From assembly GCA_934098705.1 (NCBI GenBank), contig CAKOPC010000002.1, positions 26,990-90,989 on the forward strand: DNA of 64,000 bases, given 5' to 3'. This DNA comes from an uncultured Bacilli bacterium. GTDB taxonomy: Bacteria > Bacillota_I > Bacilli_A > RF39 > UBA660. Numbering within the stretch: the stretch's first letter is position 1; each line of letters opens with the position of its first letter. The notes beneath the pieces are model-generated. The model saw nothing but the letters and a program-made list of their open reading frames with translations, made no database searches and was not told the DNA's origin. Shown here piece after piece: positions 35,103-49,740 of this stretch. The translations under genes and the position numbers were made by a program.

Positions 35103-35984
35103 CTATTTTAAGTAATTAATAACTTGTAATGCTGCTATAGTACCATCACTTGTTGCAGTTGTAAGTTGTCTTACCTTTTTATAAGTACAATCACCTGCGG
35201 CAAAAATACCATCTACATTTGTTTTACAATCTATAGTCTTTATATAACCATCATCTGTAAGATTTACTAACCCTTTAAATATATCATTACAAGGCTCAAG
35301 TCCTATCGATATAAACATACCATCTGCCTTTAATGTATCTTTATCATTTATAATAACTGAAGATAAAGCATCATCTCCATTTATTTTTGTGATTTTTGAT
35401 GATAATAAAATCTTTATATTAGATATTTTTTTTATTTCCTCTATTAATTTCTCTTCTCCTGTTAATTTATCAAGATTTTGGACCATGTAAACATTTTTAC
35501 AAATAGAAGATAAAGAAATAGCATTAATAAGAGCCGTATTGCCTCCCCCTACAACTATTACATCTTTTCCTTTATAAAAAGCCCCATCACAAGTAACACA
35601 AAAATGTATTCCCTTTCCTATTAAATTATCTTCATTTTCTAAATTTAATTTTCTATGTGAAACTCCAGTTGCAATTATAATTGTTTTTGAAAAATAAGTA
35701 TTATCATCTGTTACAACCTTTTTAGTATCCCCATCCAATACCTTTAAAACAGTACCTATCTCAAAAGAAACGCCAAGATCTTCTACCTGTTTAAAAACAT
35801 TATCTACCAAAGATGCCCCTTTTATATCAGGACATCCTGGGTAATTTGAAACTTTGGGAGATGAGGATATTTGTCCCCCAATAGTTTCTTTTTCTATAAT
35901 TAAACACTTAAGATTTGCTCTTGCAAGATATATAGAAGCGGTCATACCAGCCATTCCGCATCCTATAATTATACAGTCATACAT
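35103..35984 (-). CDS. trxB: Thioredoxin-disulfide reductase-like flavoprotein (low-Mr TrxB type)
   Basis: 293 aa. FAD-binding GCGMAGMTASIY, redox CxxC CVTCDGAF, NAD(P)H-binding GGGNTA. No C-terminal extension. Confidence 0.7.
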   Translation of the reverse strand: MYDCIIIGCGMAGMTASIYLARANLKCLIIEKETIGGQISSSPKVSNYPGCPDIKGASLVDNVFKQVEDLGVSFEIGTVLKVLDGDTKKVVTDDNTYFSKTIIIATGVSHRKLNLENEDNLIGKGIHFCVTCDGAFYKGKDVIVVGGGNTALINAISLSSICKNVYMVQNLDKLTGEEKLIEEIKKISNIKILLSSKITKINGDDALSSVIINDKDTLKADGMFISIGLEPCNDIFKGLVNLTDDGYIKTIDCKTNVDGIFAAGDCTYKKVRQLTTATSDGTIAALQVINYLK

Positions 35985-35987
35985 AAA

Positions 35988-38309
35988 TTATGCCTCTTCT
36001 GTAAACTTCTTTATATTTGATAAATTAACAATATTAGTTGCAACACCATTTTTTATAACAACTAAAGTTGGAGCCTGTTTTACATTATATTTTTTAGTTA
36101 AATCAACATCTTCTTCAGCATCTACAAATTCATATTTTATATGTTTTTTATCAAGAAGTGTTTTAGCTACTTTACAATTAGGACATGTTTTAGTACCAAA
36201 TAACATAATTTTATCTTCTTCATTATGACATTTTTCATGATGACAATCTAAATTATATTCTTTTCTCATTTCAAATTCTTTTGTTTTACCAGCATTCCAG
36301 TTTTTTATTGGTCTATAATATCCAGTTATTCTACTATAAACTTCTGTTTCACAACCACATTTAGGACATTTATAAACTTCTCCAGTTATATAGCCATGAT
36401 TTTTACATACTGAGTATGTTGGAGATATTGTGTAATATGGTAATTTATAATTATTAGCTATAGTTTTAACAAGGTTAGCAGCACTTTTCCAGCCATCTAA
36501 TCTTTCTCCTAAGAAAGCATGGAATACTGTACCTGATGTATATAAAGTTTGAAGTTCATCTTGTATATCTAACGCTTCAAATAAATCTTCTGTATAACCA
36601 ACAGGTAAATGAGAACTATTAGTATAATATGGTGTATCATCATTAGATGCTGTAATGATATCTTTAAACATTTCCTTATCTTTTTTAGCAAGTCTATAAG
36701 AAGTTGATTCAGCTGGTGTTGCTTCAAGATTATATAAATCACCATACTCTTCTTGATAATCAGCAAGCTTTTCTCTCATATAATTTAATACATCTTTAGT
36801 AAATTCTTGTGCTTCTTTATTAGTTAAATCTTTTTTAATCCAAGAAGCATTTAAACAAGCTTCATTCATACCAACAAGTCCAATAGTTGAAAAATGATTA
36901 CTAAATGTTTTTAAATATCTCTTAGTATAAGGATATAATCCCTCTTCAAGTAATTTTGATATTACATTTCTCTTTATCTTTAAACTACGTGCTGCAATAT
37001 CCATAATTTTTGTAAGTCTTTCATAAAAATCTTTTTCGTCTTTTGCAAGATAAGCAATACGTGGCATATTAATTGTTACAACACCTATTGAACCAGTACT
37101 TTCACCACTACCAAAATAACCTCCTGATTTTTTACGTAATTCTCTTAAATCAAGTCTTAATCTACAACACATACTTCTAACATCACTTGGTTCCATGTCA
37201 GAGTTTATATAATTTGAAAAGTATGGAGTACCATATTTAGCAGTCATTTCAAATAATAACTTATTGTTTTCTGTTTCTTTAAAATCAAAATCTTTAGTTA
37301 TTGAATAAGTTGGAATTGGGTACTGGAAACCTCTTCCATTAGCATCACCTTCAATCATAATCTCAATAAAGGCTTTGTTTATCATATCCATTTCTTTTTG
37401 ACAATCTTTATATTTAAAATCTACTTCACGTCCTCCAATAATTGCATTAAGTTCTGCTAAGTCATTAGGGCAAGTCCAGTCAAGAGTAACATTTGTAAAC
37501 GGTGCTTGTGTTCCCCATCTTGAAGGAGTATTAACACCATATACAAATGATTGTATTGCCTGTTTTGTTTCTTTATATGACAAATTGTCTATTTTAACAA
37601 AAGGAGCAAGATATGTATCAAAACTTGAAAATGCTTGTGCTCCAGCCCATTCATTTTGCATAATACCTAAAAAATTAACCATTTGATTACATAATGTTGA
37701 TAAATGTTTCGCAGGTGATGATGTTATTTTTCCAGGAACTCCTCCAAGTCCTTCCAAAATTAATTGTTTTAAACTCCAACCAGCACAATATCCTGTAAGC
37801 ATTGACAAATCGTGAATATGGAAAGTACAATCACGATGTGCCTTGGCAATTTCTTCATCATATATCTCACTTAACCAGTAGTTAGCAGTAATTGCTCCAC
37901 TATTACTTAAAATAAGACCTCCAACTGAATATGTTACTGTTGAGTTTTCCTTAACTCTCCAGTCAGTTACATTAACATAACTATTTACAACTTCCCTATA
38001 ATCTAACATTGTATTTTTAATATTACGCATTTTATCATGTGATTTACGATATAAAATATATGCTTTAGCAACTTTATCATAACCTGCATTAATTAAAGTT
38101 TTTTCAACTGCATCTTGTATATCTTCAACATTTACAATATTATTTTCAACTTTACTATTAAAAGCAGCAGTAACTTTTAAAGATAAAAAGTCAATTATAT
38201 TTTCGTCATAACACTCCCCTTCTGCTTCAAAAGCCTTAATAATAGCTTTACTTATTTTTTCCATTTCAAATGAAACAATTTTACCGTCTCTTTTTCTTAC
38301 TTTATACAT
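35988..38309 (-). CDS. nrdD: Anaerobic ribonucleoside-triphosphate reductase NrdD (class III RNR) with N-terminal ATP-cone and C-terminal glutaredoxin/NrdH-like fusion
   Basis: 773 aa. ATP-cone (VRKRDGKIVSFEMEKI...VEDIQDAVE), active-site loop SMCCRLRL, C-terminal Zn-ribbon CPKCGC + glycyl-radical region (RITGYY). Extra ~75-aa tail with thioredoxin-fold CxxC (FGTKTCPNCKVAK ... APTLVV). Confidence 0.9.
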   Translation of the reverse strand: MYKVRKRDGKIVSFEMEKISKAIIKAFEAEGECYDENIIDFLSLKVTAAFNSKVENNIVNVEDIQDAVEKTLINAGYDKVAKAYILYRKSHDKMRNIKNTMLDYREVVNSYVNVTDWRVKENSTVTYSVGGLILSNSGAITANYWLSEIYDEEIAKAHRDCTFHIHDLSMLTGYCAGWSLKQLILEGLGGVPGKITSSPAKHLSTLCNQMVNFLGIMQNEWAGAQAFSSFDTYLAPFVKIDNLSYKETKQAIQSFVYGVNTPSRWGTQAPFTNVTLDWTCPNDLAELNAIIGGREVDFKYKDCQKEMDMINKAFIEIMIEGDANGRGFQYPIPTYSITKDFDFKETENNKLLFEMTAKYGTPYFSNYINSDMEPSDVRSMCCRLRLDLRELRKKSGGYFGSGESTGSIGVVTINMPRIAYLAKDEKDFYERLTKIMDIAARSLKIKRNVISKLLEEGLYPYTKRYLKTFSNHFSTIGLVGMNEACLNASWIKKDLTNKEAQEFTKDVLNYMREKLADYQEEYGDLYNLEATPAESTSYRLAKKDKEMFKDIITASNDDTPYYTNSSHLPVGYTEDLFEALDIQDELQTLYTSGTVFHAFLGERLDGWKSAANLVKTIANNYKLPYYTISPTYSVCKNHGYITGEVYKCPKCGCETEVYSRITGYYRPIKNWNAGKTKEFEMRKEYNLDCHHEKCHNEEDKIMLFGTKTCPNCKVAKTLLDKKHIKYEFVDAEEDVDLTKKYNVKQAPTLVVIKNGVATNIVNLSNIKKFTEEA

Positions 38310-38324
38310 ATTTTTACTTCCTTC

Positions 38325-39002
38325 CTACCTAACTTTAATTTTTCTTTTTTTATTTAAAACATCTTCCATATAAATAAGTTCATCTTCTGTAAAACCATGA
38401 AGATTTTTATTCATAACATTATTACTTAATCTAAAATTTTGTATATAATAAGGTGTTTCTTTTTTAAACATATCATTTATTTCTAAAATATCAAAAATAG
38501 TATGATATTCTTTTATAACAGTAGTTCTAAATTCATGTAAAACATTAGAGTCTTCAAGTATTTTTATACTTTGCATTATCTTATCTGTATTAATATTAAC
38601 GCCCGTTACCATACTATATTTTGCAAGTGTTTGTTTAATATCCATTGCTACATAATCTAGTAAATTACTATCAATCAAATCTTTTAACATAACAGGATTA
38701 TATCCGTTAGTATCAAGTTTAACTTTATAACCCATATCCTTTATTTTTTTTATAAACTCTTTTAAATCCTTATGTATCGTAGGCTCTCCTCCAGTTATTA
38801 CAACGCCTTCAAGAATACCTTTTCTTTTTTCTAAATACGAAAATACCTTATCCATTTCTAAAGTGTCATCATCTAAATTATTTATAAGACCACTATTTTG
38901 ACAAAAAGGACACTTAAAATTACATCCTTTAGTAAATATTATACAAGATAAAGTATCTGGGAAATCCAAAAGAGTTACCTTTTGCATTCCTGCAATCTTC
39001 AT
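38325..39002 (-). CDS. nrdG: Anaerobic ribonucleotide reductase activating protein (radical SAM)
   Basis: 225 aa; radical SAM cluster motif CNFKCPFCQN, GGEPT glycine-rich motif; directly upstream of nrdD. Confidence 0.85.
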   Translation of the reverse strand: MKIAGMQKVTLLDFPDTLSCIIFTKGCNFKCPFCQNSGLINNLDDDTLEMDKVFSYLEKRKGILEGVVITGGEPTIHKDLKEFIKKIKDMGYKVKLDTNGYNPVMLKDLIDSNLLDYVAMDIKQTLAKYSMVTGVNINTDKIMQSIKILEDSNVLHEFRTTVIKEYHTIFDILEINDMFKKETPYYIQNFRLSNNVMNKNLHGFTEDELIYMEDVLNKKRKIKVR

Positions 39003-40864
39003 GTACTATCACCAACCTTAAAAGCAACAAGTCCAAAACCTAAATCATTTAAACTCTTTATAGTATTTATAATATCTTTATCACTTGCTATATTAATAGA
39101 GGTTAAATACCCACCATTTAAATATTTATTATAAATACTAACACTATCTAATTTTTTTAGATTGTTAAATTCTATTATATTTTTATAACAATCTATATCT
39201 TTTAACATATTACTATATATTGTTTTATCAATATTAACAAAGTAATTAGTAGCATCTTCAAAGTATGCAAAACTTAATTTAAAATCAAGTTTTAAAGAAT
39301 CAGTATACTTATAAAGCCATGTTTTTATATATTTTAAAATTCTATCTTGTGATACCAAATCCTTTTCTATATCAAGAAATTTTATCATTTCAAGAAACCC
39401 TGAAAGATTAATAACTAATATACCATTTTTTATTATTTTTCTTATTTTTTGACCCTTTTCAAGTCTTTCATCATCATAGATATTACCATTAAAAAGTACT
39501 TTGTAATTATCTTTTGTTTTATCACCTAAAGTTTCAAGTACAACATCAAGTTCACATTTTATATTCTCTAAAGTTTCTAAAAGTTCACTGTAAAAAGCCT
39601 TATTTAACTTTCTATACTTTAATCCTAATCTTGCCATATTTAAAGATGTAACAGCAAGTACCATATTATTTTTACTTTCTAAACATATACCATTACTAAA
39701 ATATAAAGTATTGTTACTATAATTTAATTTAATATTTCTATTTATTTTTATTAAAGTTGCAACTCTTTCTAACATAGCATAACTATTTAATAAATAATTA
39801 TTAACATTAAATATAAAACATATATTGTTATATGAATTATTCTCTATAATTTTTAAAATATAATTTAAAATAATGTTATTATCTTTAAAACTTAAATTAA
39901 ATGTATATTTATAATTAAAATATGTATTATTAATACCATTAAATAACTGTTCCATATTGTTGTATAAGTCATTTAAAACTTCTGTTTTTGATAAAGATAA
40001 TGTTTTTAAAAATATATTATAAATATTATCATTTATCAAAAATTCATTAAATAACGATATAGAAGTATCAAAAGATGTTATTTTTGCTATAGTATCATCA
40101 AGTTTTTTAATATTTATAAATTCTAAAAATCCAAACATATTTAAATTTTGTTTTAATCTAATACTAAAATTCTCTTTATAAAAACAAATTGCTTTAGATA
40201 AAAATATATTGTCTATATCATTTACTAATATTTCTTGTGCTGTTTCTAAACTTGCTTTTGTAAGTGATAAATAAAGGTCTAAAATATAATTTTTTCCAAG
40301 TTTTAAAGGGTCAATTCTTAAATTTATATATTCTAAAAATCCTAAATTAAAGGAATCTAAATCATGAATATATATTTTTCCTTCATCATGAGCTCTTATA
40401 AATTTATTATCCATCACATATGATTTTGTATATGATGAAGATACAATTTTACCATATTTTAATAATGCCTTTGTGGGAGATAAGAATTTGGTATCTGCAT
40501 CCTCTAAATCCTGAGCTACTCTTACAAATTTATGTTGTTTTTTAAGTGTAAAAGCTCTTCTTGACTCATTTCTTCTATTACGATAACTATTAAATTCTTC
40601 ATATACATCAAAAAACTTAGCCTTTTTTAATTGTTCCTCAATTATATCCTGTATATCCTCAACATTAATTGTTTTTCTATCCTTATAATTTTCCATTATA
40701 AAACTCATAACATCCTCATATACTTTATTAGCATATGACTTATCATATTTATTTGGAAAAGCATCAAATGCATATTTTATAGCAATAGCTATTTTAAGTT
40801 CATTAAAAGAAACTCTTTGTCCACTTCTTTTTACAACAACTAAACTTTTACTTAAATTTTGCAC
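38999..40864 (-). CDS. Degenerate NrdD paralog: ATP-cone + class III RNR-like core lacking the C-terminal Zn-ribbon/glycyl-radical region
   Basis: 621 aa, GTG start. N-terminal ATP-cone (VVVKRSGQRVSFNELKIAIAI...INVEDIQDIIE). Core alignable to the adjacent NrdD (AHDEGKIYIHDL vs AHRDCTFHIHDL; VLAVTSLNMARLG vs IGVVTINMPRIAYL). No CC loop, no CxxC...CxxC, no RxxGY. Stop overlaps the nrdG start (ATGA). Confidence 0.6.
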   Translation of the reverse strand: MQNLSKSLVVVKRSGQRVSFNELKIAIAIKYAFDAFPNKYDKSYANKVYEDVMSFIMENYKDRKTINVEDIQDIIEEQLKKAKFFDVYEEFNSYRNRRNESRRAFTLKKQHKFVRVAQDLEDADTKFLSPTKALLKYGKIVSSSYTKSYVMDNKFIRAHDEGKIYIHDLDSFNLGFLEYINLRIDPLKLGKNYILDLYLSLTKASLETAQEILVNDIDNIFLSKAICFYKENFSIRLKQNLNMFGFLEFINIKKLDDTIAKITSFDTSISLFNEFLINDNIYNIFLKTLSLSKTEVLNDLYNNMEQLFNGINNTYFNYKYTFNLSFKDNNIILNYILKIIENNSYNNICFIFNVNNYLLNSYAMLERVATLIKINRNIKLNYSNNTLYFSNGICLESKNNMVLAVTSLNMARLGLKYRKLNKAFYSELLETLENIKCELDVVLETLGDKTKDNYKVLFNGNIYDDERLEKGQKIRKIIKNGILVINLSGFLEMIKFLDIEKDLVSQDRILKYIKTWLYKYTDSLKLDFKLSFAYFEDATNYFVNIDKTIYSNMLKDIDCYKNIIEFNNLKKLDSVSIYNKYLNGGYLTSINIASDKDIINTIKSLNDLGFGLVAFKVGDST

Positions 40865-41177
40865 TATACTGTATCACTTCCTTTTACCCTATGAGTTAAT
40901 GATAACAAAATAAATATTATAGTGCAATGTTTTTTTTGCTATTTTTTTAAAAAATATAAAATGATGTAAATTTAAAAATTTAAAAAATTAACAAAAAAAA
41001 CATTTCTTTCTATATATTGCAACAATTTAGATATAACTTTTTAATTTTGTTTGCTTTACAAAAGAAAAAATAATACTTGTCATTTAATTTTACAAACATA
41101 TTTTTTATATTTTTTTTAATGTTTATCTTTACAAAGTGTAAAAAAAAATATAAAATGAATATAGTGGTGGATGACAA

Positions 41178-42029
41178 ATGATAAAAAATGAATTAGATAC
41201 TATAAATATGGATGATATAAATGATAAGACTATAAAAAACTATGTCGAAAATTATATAACAAGAAATGATAAAGAAAACGAACCATTTATTAATAATGCA
41301 ATATTAATATCATCTTTGACATCCCTTTTTATAACCTATAAAAAAAATCCTGTTATAAGAACTAATACATCATTTAAAGATTATCTATATATAAATGCCA
41401 CTCAAAGTATGTTAAATTTAATAAATATTGAAAATAAATATGATAATATTGATCCGAAAAATATAAAAAAACAGCTAGAAAAACATTTAATTAATGGTTA
41501 TAATAATATATATGAAAATAATAAAAATAAAGATGATATTCTATTTAAATTACATATAAATAATAATGATATATATAATGTAAAAGTCGAAGATGCTATG
41601 TACATTCTAAAAGATATGATAACAACATTAATACTATATGATAACTCTTATTATGATAGATTAGAAAAACAAATATTTTTAGAGTACGATAAATTTAGCA
41701 AAACAACTCATGACATAAGTTATATTCTAAAAAAAGTAGTGGAAGCTTTAAATACCTTAAATGAAAAACTAGATAAAGCAAAAAAAGATGGTAATAAAGT
41801 TATAATTAACTACTATATAGAAAGTATGATAAAATTAATTGATAATAAAACTTCTAATATTACAAGTGATATATTTAAAGGCTTAAATCCAGAAGATAAA
41901 ATGAATTTTTGTAAAATAAGATATATAAAAGCATCATTAAAAGATGAAATGGAATTTTCAAAAAAGAAAGAACAAATAAAATTTAATAAATTTATAGGTA
42001 ACAGATATATAGTAAGTAAAAGTGCATAA
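41178..42029 (+). CDS. Hypothetical cytoplasmic protein (Asn/Lys-rich)
   Basis: 283 aa; no TM segments, no motif recognised; RBS GGTGG upstream. Confidence 0.4.
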   Translation: MIKNELDTINMDDINDKTIKNYVENYITRNDKENEPFINNAILISSLTSLFITYKKNPVIRTNTSFKDYLYINATQSMLNLINIENKYDNIDPKNIKKQLEKHLINGYNNIYENNKNKDDILFKLHINNNDIYNVKVEDAMYILKDMITTLILYDNSYYDRLEKQIFLEYDKFSKTTHDISYILKKVVEALNTLNEKLDKAKKDGNKVIINYYIESMIKLIDNKTSNITSDIFKGLNPEDKMNFCKIRYIKASLKDEMEFSKKKEQIKFNKFIGNRYIVSKSA

Positions 42030-45645: not shown

Positions 45646-45719
45646 ATGGCAGGGGCAGTAGGAATCGAACCCACATCAGCGGTTTTGGAGACCGTTATTC
45701 TACCGTTATACTATGCCCC
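45646..45719 (-). tRNA. tRNA-Trp (anticodon CCA)
   Basis: Minus-strand sequence AGGGGCAUAGUAUAACGGUAGAAUAACGGUCUCCAAAACCGCUGAUGUGGGUUCGAUUCCUACUGCCCCUGCCA. 7-bp acceptor stem (AGGGGCA/UGCCCCU), U8, T-arm GUGGG-UUCGAUU-CCUAC, anticodon loop CUCCAAA, encoded 3' CCA. Confidence 0.85.
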
Positions 45720-45805
45720 TAAAAACATGTTACAAGATAATTTTATATTAAAACTTCTAAAAAATCAAGAGATTACATAAAATTTATTATAATAATGGAG
45801 GTATT

Positions 45806-49604: not shown

Positions 49605-49740
49605 AAGAAAACACCCAAGATAACCTTTCTTGAGTGTTAAAAAAAGTTATCTTATTGATCTAGCATTACCACCTAATCAAATAGGTTGGTGCGACTTCAT
49701 AAGGCTAGTCCCTCCATCGCTCTTAATAAGATGTAACTAA
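49605..49740 (-). ncRNA. SAM-I (S-box) riboswitch with intrinsic terminator expression platform
   Basis: Minus-strand leader AUCUUAUUAAGAGCGAUGGAGGGACUAGCCUUAUGAAGUCGCACCAACC...GGUGGUAAUGCUAGAUCAAUAAGAU fits the S-box consensus. P1 is AUCUUAUU / AAUAAGAU. Then a terminator AACACUCAAGA-loop-UCUUGGGUGUU plus U-tract, ~25 nt before the metK RBS. The P1 3' strand can pair with the terminator 5' half as an antiterminator. Confidence 0.8.

Follow-up and report, generated by a model that had tools for sequence, protein, structure and literature searches.

The yeast protein Rnr4 is a catalytically inert paralog of the β subunit of class I ribonucleotide reductase (RNR), which pairs with Rnr2. In class III RNRs, to our knowledge, structures showing control by the ATP-cone date only from 2023-2025, and this control has so far been a property of the catalytic subunit itself. 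In the enzyme of Prevotella copri (PcNrdD), the ATP-cones mediate dATP-dependent contacts between dimers, with dATP-loaded cones docking on the core of a second dimer, and a single monomer is active at a time (half-of-sites behaviour, PMC11226230). Betaherpesvirus UL45/M45 are inactive R1 homologs (PMC5469499), and GrcA/YfiD is a 'spare part' of pyruvate formate-lyase, which is a glycyl radical enzyme (PMC8683613). Here we analyze a 64-kb stretch of DNA from an uncultured Bacilli bacterium (contig CAKOPC010000002.1), which we call the window and to which coordinates refer unless a related locus is named. It encodes, at the head of a class III RNR operon, a 621-residue NrdD-like protein with an ATP-cone, for which we coined the name psiD (coordinates of its open reading frame, ORF, are given in Table 1). 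This protein is probably a regulatory or accessory protein that has not been described before, rather than a decaying pseudogene.

Catalytic losses and predicted fold of psiD

The N-terminal ATP-cone of psiD matches its Pfam model with an E-value of 1.6e-14 and 54.6 bits, against a gathering score of 25.8 (PF03477, residues 9-100). This agrees with a first-pass annotation, made by a model without database searches, which had described a 621-aa ORF with an intact-looking cone; the motifs quoted there are present (AHDEGKIYIHDL). Residues K12, R13, K24, Y94, R95 and R98 of the cone are invariant in a 16-sequence alignment of the family; these basic and aromatic positions are presumably nucleotide contacts, as in characterised cones. 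The match of psiD to the NrdD model of Pfam (PF13597, NRDD) is only partial, covering residues 380-604 (E 2.1e-21). Further, psiD falls far below every NCBIfam cut-off for NrdD equivalogs, the best being PRK07111 with 126.9 bits against 764; TIGR02487 gave 49.9 bits against 326.

The catalytic elements were compared in alignments with the NrdD encoded next to psiD, with a catalytic sister clade, with PcNrdD and with 106 representative proteins, using the published functional map of PcNrdD, which includes the roles of the NxN flap and of the other substrate and radical elements (PMC11226230). At the position of the β-A cysteine, psiD reads LGFLEYINL, the adjacent NrdD GYCAGW and the closest catalytic clade GTTTC. 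In the finger loop, which carries Cys416 in PcNrdD, the corresponding segments are YFSNGICLE, SMCCRL and YMGCRTRV. Both the glycyl-radical motif RxxGY and the Zn ribbon are missing from psiD, whose ORF stops after the last barrel strand. The NxN flap and the hairpin of the specificity site (s-site) are deleted, and loop 2, the Asn of strand six and the Glu of the TPAE loop are lost as well. Catalytic controls in the 106-protein alignment show the full set NNHHDCCNECCG at the key columns, therefore the column mapping works.

Because psiD lacks the flap, both cysteines, the s-site hairpin, loop 2, the TPAE Glu, the Zn ribbon and the glycyl-radical domain, it cannot be a reductase. As judged from the alignments it is catalytically dead, with every element for binding or reducing ribonucleotides or for carrying a glycyl radical gone. 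The first-pass annotation had already noted that the thiyl-radical CC loop, the Zn ribbon and the glycyl-radical motif were absent, and it had named the presence of the catalytic Cys and glycyl-radical residues in a proper alignment as a point on which its proposal would fall; alignment with catalytic NrdDs left all of these elements absent from psiD. Its statement that the catalytic C-terminus is lost is correct but too narrow, since the loss extends to the NxN flap, the s-site hairpin, loop 2, the TPAE Glu and the HxHD motif, which has become YIHD.

An AlphaFold2 (AF2) model of psiD, computed from the 16-sequence family alignment, had a predicted local distance difference test score (pLDDT) of 82.6 and a predicted template modelling score (pTM) of 0.77, and it contains the finger hairpin as well as each of the ten strands of the barrel. 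In Foldseek searches with this model against the PDB, the best matches were NrdDs with an ATP-cone, those of P. copri (8p28/8p23, E ~1e-23, template modelling (TM) score ~0.65) and of S. thermophilus, followed by the NrdDs of T4 and T. maritima, with an overall range of E 1e-23 to 1e-12 and TM ~0.5-0.66. According to the model, psiD has retained the NrdD-type α/β barrel.

Conservation, operon linkage and origin

A homolog search with psiD found 64 sequence variants at 98-100% identity, every one of them 621 aa long, and many full-length relatives of 606-660 aa at ~40% identity. Scanning one genome per species of GTDB, we obtained 42 intact orthologs, all from uncultured gut and rumen Bacilli; their records include Bacilli bacterium, Mycoplasma sp. 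CAG:776, Clostridium sp. CAG:762 and CAG:914, and Ca. Avacholeplasma. None of the 42 contains a frameshift or a stop, by which the first-pass annotation would have recognised a plain pseudogene in related genomes.

The ratio of nonsynonymous to synonymous substitution rates (dN/dS), computed by the Nei-Gojobori method for eight ortholog pairs, was 0.10-0.22 for psiD, 0.10-0.28 for nrdG, 0.12-0.19 for the trxB-like gene and 0.03-0.11 for nrdD; dS was saturated in the more distant pairs, and the two close pairs gave 0.16 and 0.22 for psiD. Along psiD, the pooled ratio of nonsynonymous to synonymous differences (pN/pS) stayed below 0.5 in all regions, with 0.17 in the cone, 0.15 in the linker and first strand, 0.45 in residues 186-380, 0.25 in residues 381-500 and 0.30 in the C-terminal part. 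The mean frequency of the top residue over 38 orthologs was highest in the ATP-cone (0.70, vs 0.40 in the middle third), and invariant motifs are spread over the full length of the protein. psiD is conserved and under purifying selection. Proteins of related loci are 74-84% identical to those of the window for NrdD, 46-59% for NrdG, 47-57% for the thioredoxin reductase (TrxR)-like protein and 32-41% for psiD, and the mean pairwise distances in 34 complete cassettes were 0.21 for NrdD, 0.62 for NrdG, 0.62 for TrxR and 0.91 for psiD.

Two of the related loci, which we label with L-numbers, encode a short psiD of 564 aa (L018, 3542..5236; L019, 1167..2861). It overlaps nrdG and ends just past a conserved GG motif, without the helix and the strand that close the longer form; the short form is intact in two species, with a dN/dS of 0.22. 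Between the close genomes of L026 and L027, synonymous divergence (pS) in psiD is mosaic, being 0.00 in codons 101-185 and ~0.39 in codons 381-500, which suggests recombination inside the gene.

In the window, psiD is followed on the minus strand by three further ORFs in a tight cassette of the order psiD-nrdG-nrdD-trxB, in which nrdD is fused to a glutaredoxin (Grx) domain. The order psiD, nrdG, nrdD(Grx) holds at each of the 40 related loci with enough downstream sequence to show it; the trxB-like gene comes next at every locus whose contig reaches it, and the flanking genes vary from locus to locus. The distance from the psiD stop to the nrdG start ranges from an 11-nt overlap to a 7-nt gap (39/39 related loci), and in 15 loci it is a 4-nt ATGA overlap. 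The same ATGA overlap is found in the window, where the first-pass annotation had pointed it out and where it can be read from the sequence directly. The N-terminus of psiD, MQNLSKSLVVVKR, agrees with the family consensus. psiD is the first product of a four-gene operon, and its translation is coupled to that of the activase NrdG; by this linkage, it would be co-expressed with activase and reductase. The distance matrices of the four cassette genes show similar correlations (r 0.52-0.62, partial r 0.18-0.36), and because they correlate equally, the genes were co-inherited as a cassette.

A variant cassette occurs in L032 (2785..7739), where psiD (675 aa) is followed by a fused P. copri-type nrdD (782 aa) and a small nrdG (185 aa, with the motif CSHKCKGC). 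Here psiD lies directly upstream of the other type of NrdD and its nrdG, and it is therefore still linked to class III RNR genes.

The first-pass annotation had described psiD as a degenerate class III RNR paralog, with a core clearly homologous to that of the neighbouring NrdD. The core homology is visible in the motif VLAVTSLNMARLG of psiD, which corresponds to IGVVTINMPRIAYL in NrdD, but the two proteins have only 19% overall identity and fall into different NrdD subfamilies; BLASTP aligns no more than their first 170 residues (28% identity, E 2e-8). The closest catalytic relatives of psiD are NrdDs of ~757 aa from related gut Bacilli, which are of the P. copri/PRK07111 type, have all catalytic motifs and are 27-30% identical to it. 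In neighbour-joining trees, computed without support values, psiD is monophyletic and sister to this P. copri-like clade of gut Bacilli, and the psiD and the NrdD of L032 are each the most basal branch of their own clade. Identity, NCBIfam assignment and trees thus agree in placing psiD in a separate P. copri-like NrdD lineage and not in that of the adjacent NrdD, and they rule out a recent duplication of the latter. In the simplest history we can infer, a P. copri-like nrdD was duplicated in tandem, one copy lost catalysis, and later the nrdG-nrdD(Grx)-trxB module took the place of the catalytic copy in situ. A phage origin was also rejected, as IMG/VR contains only ordinary NrdD N-termini (~30% identity) and no members of psiD.

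The sister clade (L035-L084) has a peculiarity of its own. In 39 of 42 loci (e.g. L048, 9131..9420, and L064, L036, L054 and L082), the NrdD ORF of ~757 aa, with all cysteine motifs and the Zn ribbon present, ends right past the Zn ribbon, and the glycyl-radical motif FDRIRRITGYLVGTLDRFNNAKK is found on a separate ORF of 49-61 aa. This ORF has its own start codon, may be in any frame and starts between 11 nt before and 54 nt after the nrdD stop; a small nrdG follows. Fused forms of NrdD and glycyl-radical domain exist in L085 and L032. Judging from the gene layout, the class III RNR of the sister clade seems to be split by nature, with the glycyl-radical domain acting in trans; no account of an RNR divided in this way turned up in open-access full text.

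When 1.84 billion representative proteins were searched with a profile, 223 matches at E <1e-30 were obtained. Of the proteins listed, 106 have a length of 560 aa or more, and 92 of these have neither of the two cysteines nor a glycyl-radical domain. Along with the cysteines, 92/92 of these dead representatives have lost the NxN flap, the initial His of HxHD and the Glu of the substrate loop. By this criterion, there are at least 92 clusters (at 50% identity) of presumably dead NrdD-like ATP-cone proteins. Neither Pfam nor NCBIfam has a model dedicated to this family, whose members are labelled 'anaerobic ribonucleoside-triphosphate reductase' by NCBI. The distant members in L088-L093 are 680-730 aa long; that of L088 is encoded next to nrdD-nrdG, in divergent orientation. 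Two proteins have kept parts of the catalytic C-terminus, P0206 the Zn ribbon and P0245 the Zn ribbon together with a degenerate radical motif, RRINNT. The gene for P0231 (L093, 499..2589) contains one in-frame TGA near its 3' end, which is read as Trp in the recorded protein; the host of L093 probably uses genetic code 4.

The features of the cassette are collected in Table 1. In the NrdD of the window, the ATP-cone is followed by a full NRDD core (GYCAGW, SMCCRL with the finger-loop motif MCCR, Zn ribbon, RITGYY) and by a C-terminal glutaredoxin/NrdH-like domain (CPNC, aa 700-752; PF00462, residues 701-751), and the gene for the thioredoxin-reductase-like protein comes next (35103..38309, minus strand, for the two genes). 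The glutaredoxin fusion is kept in all related cassettes. Given the fusion and the adjoining TrxR-like gene, the cassette would have its own reductant chain.

Table 1. Features of the psiD cassette and of the region upstream of it, in window coordinates.
Feature	Position	Strand	Remarks
Upstream intergenic region, in common with a divergent gene	40865..41177		Presumed promoter region
psiD	38999..40864	-	ORF, 621 aa, GTG start; NrdD-like, predicted to be non-catalytic; gene 1 of the operon
ATP-cone domain, aa 9-100	40565..40840	-	PF03477; motifs VVVKRSGQRV and INVEDIQDIIE (near-)invariant
Linker helices, aa 101-160	40385..40564	-	Conserved KQQHKF; NxN substrate flap of catalytic NrdDs deleted (alignments)
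YIHD, remnant of triphosphate-binding HxHD	40361..40372	-	First His replaced by Tyr/Phe in most family members
β-A strand LGFLEYINL	40319..40345	-	Without the β-A cysteine (Cys171 of PcNrdD)
Finger-loop remnant YFSNGICLE	39677..39703	-	Y388, F389 and G392 invariant; Asn at the position of the thiyl-radical Cys
Second most conserved block, aa 443-492	39389..39538	-	Consensus FETIGDK.K.NYKVLFN.NILDDEKLE.GQKIRKVIKNGTLNINL.GL.E; conserved in the catalytic sister clade too
Last barrel strand GFGLVAFKV	39014..39040	-	Protein ends 4 residues on; without Zn ribbon and glycyl-radical domain
ATGA overlap of psiD stop and nrdG start	38999..39002	-	Read from the sequence, ACATGAAG; ATG 39002..39000, TGA 39001..38999
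nrdG, class III RNR activase, 225 aa	38325..39002	-	TIGR02495 (NrdG2), 219.7 bits vs cut-off 131
Catalytic nrdD, 773 aa	35988..38309	-	PF13597, E 3.7e-193; PRK08270, 1138 bits
trxB-like, final gene of the cassette, for a thioredoxin-reductase-like flavoprotein of 293 aa	35103..35984	-	TIGR01292, 310 bits, slightly under the cut-off of 343

In composition, psiD is rich in Asn (11.1%) and Ile (10.0%) compared to NrdD (6.6% and 6.7%), an enrichment that the first-pass annotation had noticed, and it is basic, with an isoelectric point (pI) of 8.8 vs 6.2 for NrdD. Together with the upstream intergenic region, it is the most AT-rich part of the operon (GC 0.20-0.22, vs 0.29 over nrdD; window 38001..42000), as would fit a genome of ~25% GC in which the amino acids of psiD are less constrained.

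For the region upstream of psiD, the first-pass annotation had suggested looking for a NrdR box. The 10-bp core of this box, CWANATNTWG, has a single match there (41010..41019); the window as a whole contains 9 matches vs 11.7 expected, and of the 38 upstream regions of orthologs, no more than 2 contain the core. We rejected the box, as matches occur at chance frequency. A promoter scan also remained at chance level (59 matches vs 54 expected, at the ~25% GC of the genome) and detected no terminators, and a scan of the window with Rfam gathering thresholds found no element near the operon. Elsewhere on the minus strand of the window, and unrelated to psiD, are a SAM riboswitch (RF00162, 63.6 bits; 49649..49732) and a tRNA gene (45650..45720). 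Besides psiD and nrdD, no ATP-cone ORF, such as one for NrdR, was found in the 64-kb window.

A proposed trans-acting nucleotide sensor and its rivals

We see about an even chance that psiD is a functional, non-catalytic descendant of NrdD that acts in trans as an ATP/dATP sensor for class III RNR. Its nucleotide binding, its physical partner and its regulatory effect are all inferred, and the first-pass proposal of a dATP/ATP-sensing regulator or partner still seems the best reading of the sequence data. The protein keeps an ATP-cone that is predicted to be ligand-competent, the linker helices and a ten-stranded barrel with a cysteine-less finger loop. The cone would bind ATP or dATP, the bound nucleotide would decide whether psiD associates with the catalytic NrdD, and this association would tune the amount of active reductase, its activity or its activation. 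Contacts might be made between cones or between cone and core, as in the dATP-inhibited NrdD tetramer of P. copri.

Several observations weigh against such a sensor. The co-encoded NrdD has a normal-looking ATP-cone of its own, so that an additional sensor is not obviously needed. The middle third of psiD (aa 186-380) is poorly conserved, and the protein evolves ~4.4 times as fast as NrdD and ~1.5 times as fast as NrdG and TrxR. A mirror-tree analysis of correlated distances found no partner-specific signal for psiD. The catalytic partner in L032 is of a type unlike that in all other loci, which argues against a tightly co-adapted interface between the cores. Finally, five of the six distant family members whose genomic context we inspected (L088-L093) stand alone, without nrd neighbours, so that an RNR encoded alongside may not be needed for the ancestral function.

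This last observation, together with the at least 92 clusters of dead NrdD-like ATP-cone proteins, is what makes it plausible that psiD is an autonomous nucleotide sensor with a target other than RNR, for example as a substitute for NrdR in gene expression or at another step of dNTP metabolism. The basic character of psiD (pI 8.8 vs 6.2 for NrdD) and the lack of an NrdR-like ORF within the window would be in agreement with this, although a window of 64 kb cannot show that NrdR is missing from the genome. However, Pfam and NCBIfam scans detected no DNA- or RNA-binding domain in psiD, no conserved operator-like motif was found upstream, where only the NrdR-box core was examined, and the linkage to nrd genes is absolute inside the psiD clade proper. 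We consider an autonomous sensor unlikely. In a structural role, psiD would be an obligate partner comparable to yeast Rnr4, forming a stable heterodimer with catalytic NrdD in place of the momentarily inactive monomer and serving folding, stability or activation instead of regulation by nucleotides. The retention of the NrdD fold and barrel and the strict conservation of the operon speak for this, and class I RNR offers a precedent in Rnr2-Rnr4. The half-of-sites behaviour of PcNrdD (PMC11226230) is a further point in its favour. Yet the s-site hairpin and loop 2, which are located at the dimer interface of NrdD, are deleted or degenerate in psiD, the two proteins belong to different subfamilies with 19% identity, the type of NrdD differs in L032, and the strongest constraint lies on cone and linker, not on the core; an Rnr4-like partner is thus not a likely solution either. 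We regard it as quite improbable that psiD is a scaffold for activation directed toward NrdG, with its barrel, which has no glycyl-radical plug of its own, docking NrdG or the flipped-out glycyl-radical domain of NrdD to assist or gate the installation of the radical. Translational coupling of psiD to nrdG (39/39 loci) speaks for a scaffold, and the sister clade encodes its glycyl-radical domain on its own, as a polypeptide of 49-61 aa for which docking in trans is a necessity, so that the ancestral barrel could have accepted the domain in this way. Against this, the basal L032 has the order psiD-nrdD-nrdG, in which psiD and nrdG are not adjacent, psiD lacks the Zn-ribbon part that split large subunits retain, and the strong constraint on the ATP-cone would be left unexplained.

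Two further explanations dispense with a new function. The decaying duplicate that the first-pass annotation had left as an alternative, that is, a pseudogene in progress whose frame is open by chance or for the translation of nrdG, is suggested by psiD being the fastest-evolving gene of the cassette, by its enrichment in the AT-codon residues Asn and Ile and by its GC content of ~21-22% vs 29% for nrdD. It is hardly credible in view of 42 intact orthologs in lineages where psiD is just 32-41% identical, of 64/64 within-species variants with 621 aa, of a dN/dS of 0.10-0.22, on a par with nrdG and trxB, and of invariant motifs over the whole length of a protein with a confident AF2 fold. That psiD should still be a ribonucleotide reductase, obtaining its radical from a glycyl-radical domain in trans, is close to impossible: the sister clade does use a separately encoded domain, but the cassette has no small glycyl-radical ORF, because psiD and nrdG overlap, and the residues and flap that such a reductase would need are those missing in 92/92 dead representatives. 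Both explanations are effectively excluded.

Comparison with known systems

The described protein closest to psiD is the P. copri-type NrdD (PDB 8P23/8P28; PRK07111-like), which has its domains in the same order, from the ATP-cone through the linker to the ten-stranded α/β barrel with the finger loop, and is its best match in both sequence and structure; the catalytic sister clade of psiD in gut Bacilli likewise consists of NrdDs of this type. In contrast to psiD, it has the NxN flap, both cysteines, the s-site hairpin, loop 2, the TPAE Glu, the Zn ribbon and the glycyl-radical domain. With the adjacent NrdD, which is of the Grx-fused PRK08270 type, psiD has the ATP-cone, the NrdD fold and the operon in common, but the subfamily differs.

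The separation of a glycyl radical enzyme into parts, which psiD represents, recalls GrcA. However, GrcA is a glycyl-radical domain on its own, whereas psiD is the opposite, a barrel without this domain and without the catalytic cysteine; a GrcA-like situation is found instead in the split NrdDs of the sister clade. With NrdR, which represses the transcription of nrd operons, psiD would share the use of an ATP-cone outside a catalytic RNR for sensing ATP/dATP and controlling ribonucleotide reduction. Yet NrdR has ~150 aa and binds tandem NrdR boxes through a Zn ribbon at its N-terminus, whereas psiD has no Zn ribbon, a dead barrel of 460 aa and no supported boxes.

In open-access text, including RNR-wide phylogenies and a 2026 review of glycyl radical enzymes, we found no class III RNR, nor any other glycyl radical enzyme, for which a dead subunit is described. 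If our interpretation is correct, the anaerobic RNR system would gain a separate regulatory or accessory protein, in abundant uncultured gut Bacilli. It is possible, if somewhat doubtful, that the psiD family as a whole constitutes a large undescribed set (at least 92 clusters) of trans-acting dATP/ATP sensors or hetero-oligomeric regulatory subunits, which arose beside the lineage of split reductases with their separate peptide of ~55 aa; these would be the first pseudoenzyme subunits known, both among class III RNRs and among glycyl radical enzymes in general. The annotation of these proteins needs correction: because public records give dead copies the name of the reductase, genomes with only a dead copy would be mis-scored as capable of making dNTPs anaerobically. 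For specialists on RNRs and glycyl radical enzymes, the family is also of interest as a natural experiment, in which an ATP-cone is combined with the empty barrel of a glycyl radical enzyme, without catalysis.

In evolutionary terms, the nearest parallels are Rnr4 and UL45/M45. They belong to another class of RNR, are other proteins and are not orthologous to psiD. However, they follow a principle that would hold for psiD as well, in which the paralog of an RNR subunit loses the catalytic residues, is maintained by selection and gains a new role or partner. psiD is thus a pseudoenzyme paralog of an RNR subunit, of a kind known from class I and now found in class III, within an operon.

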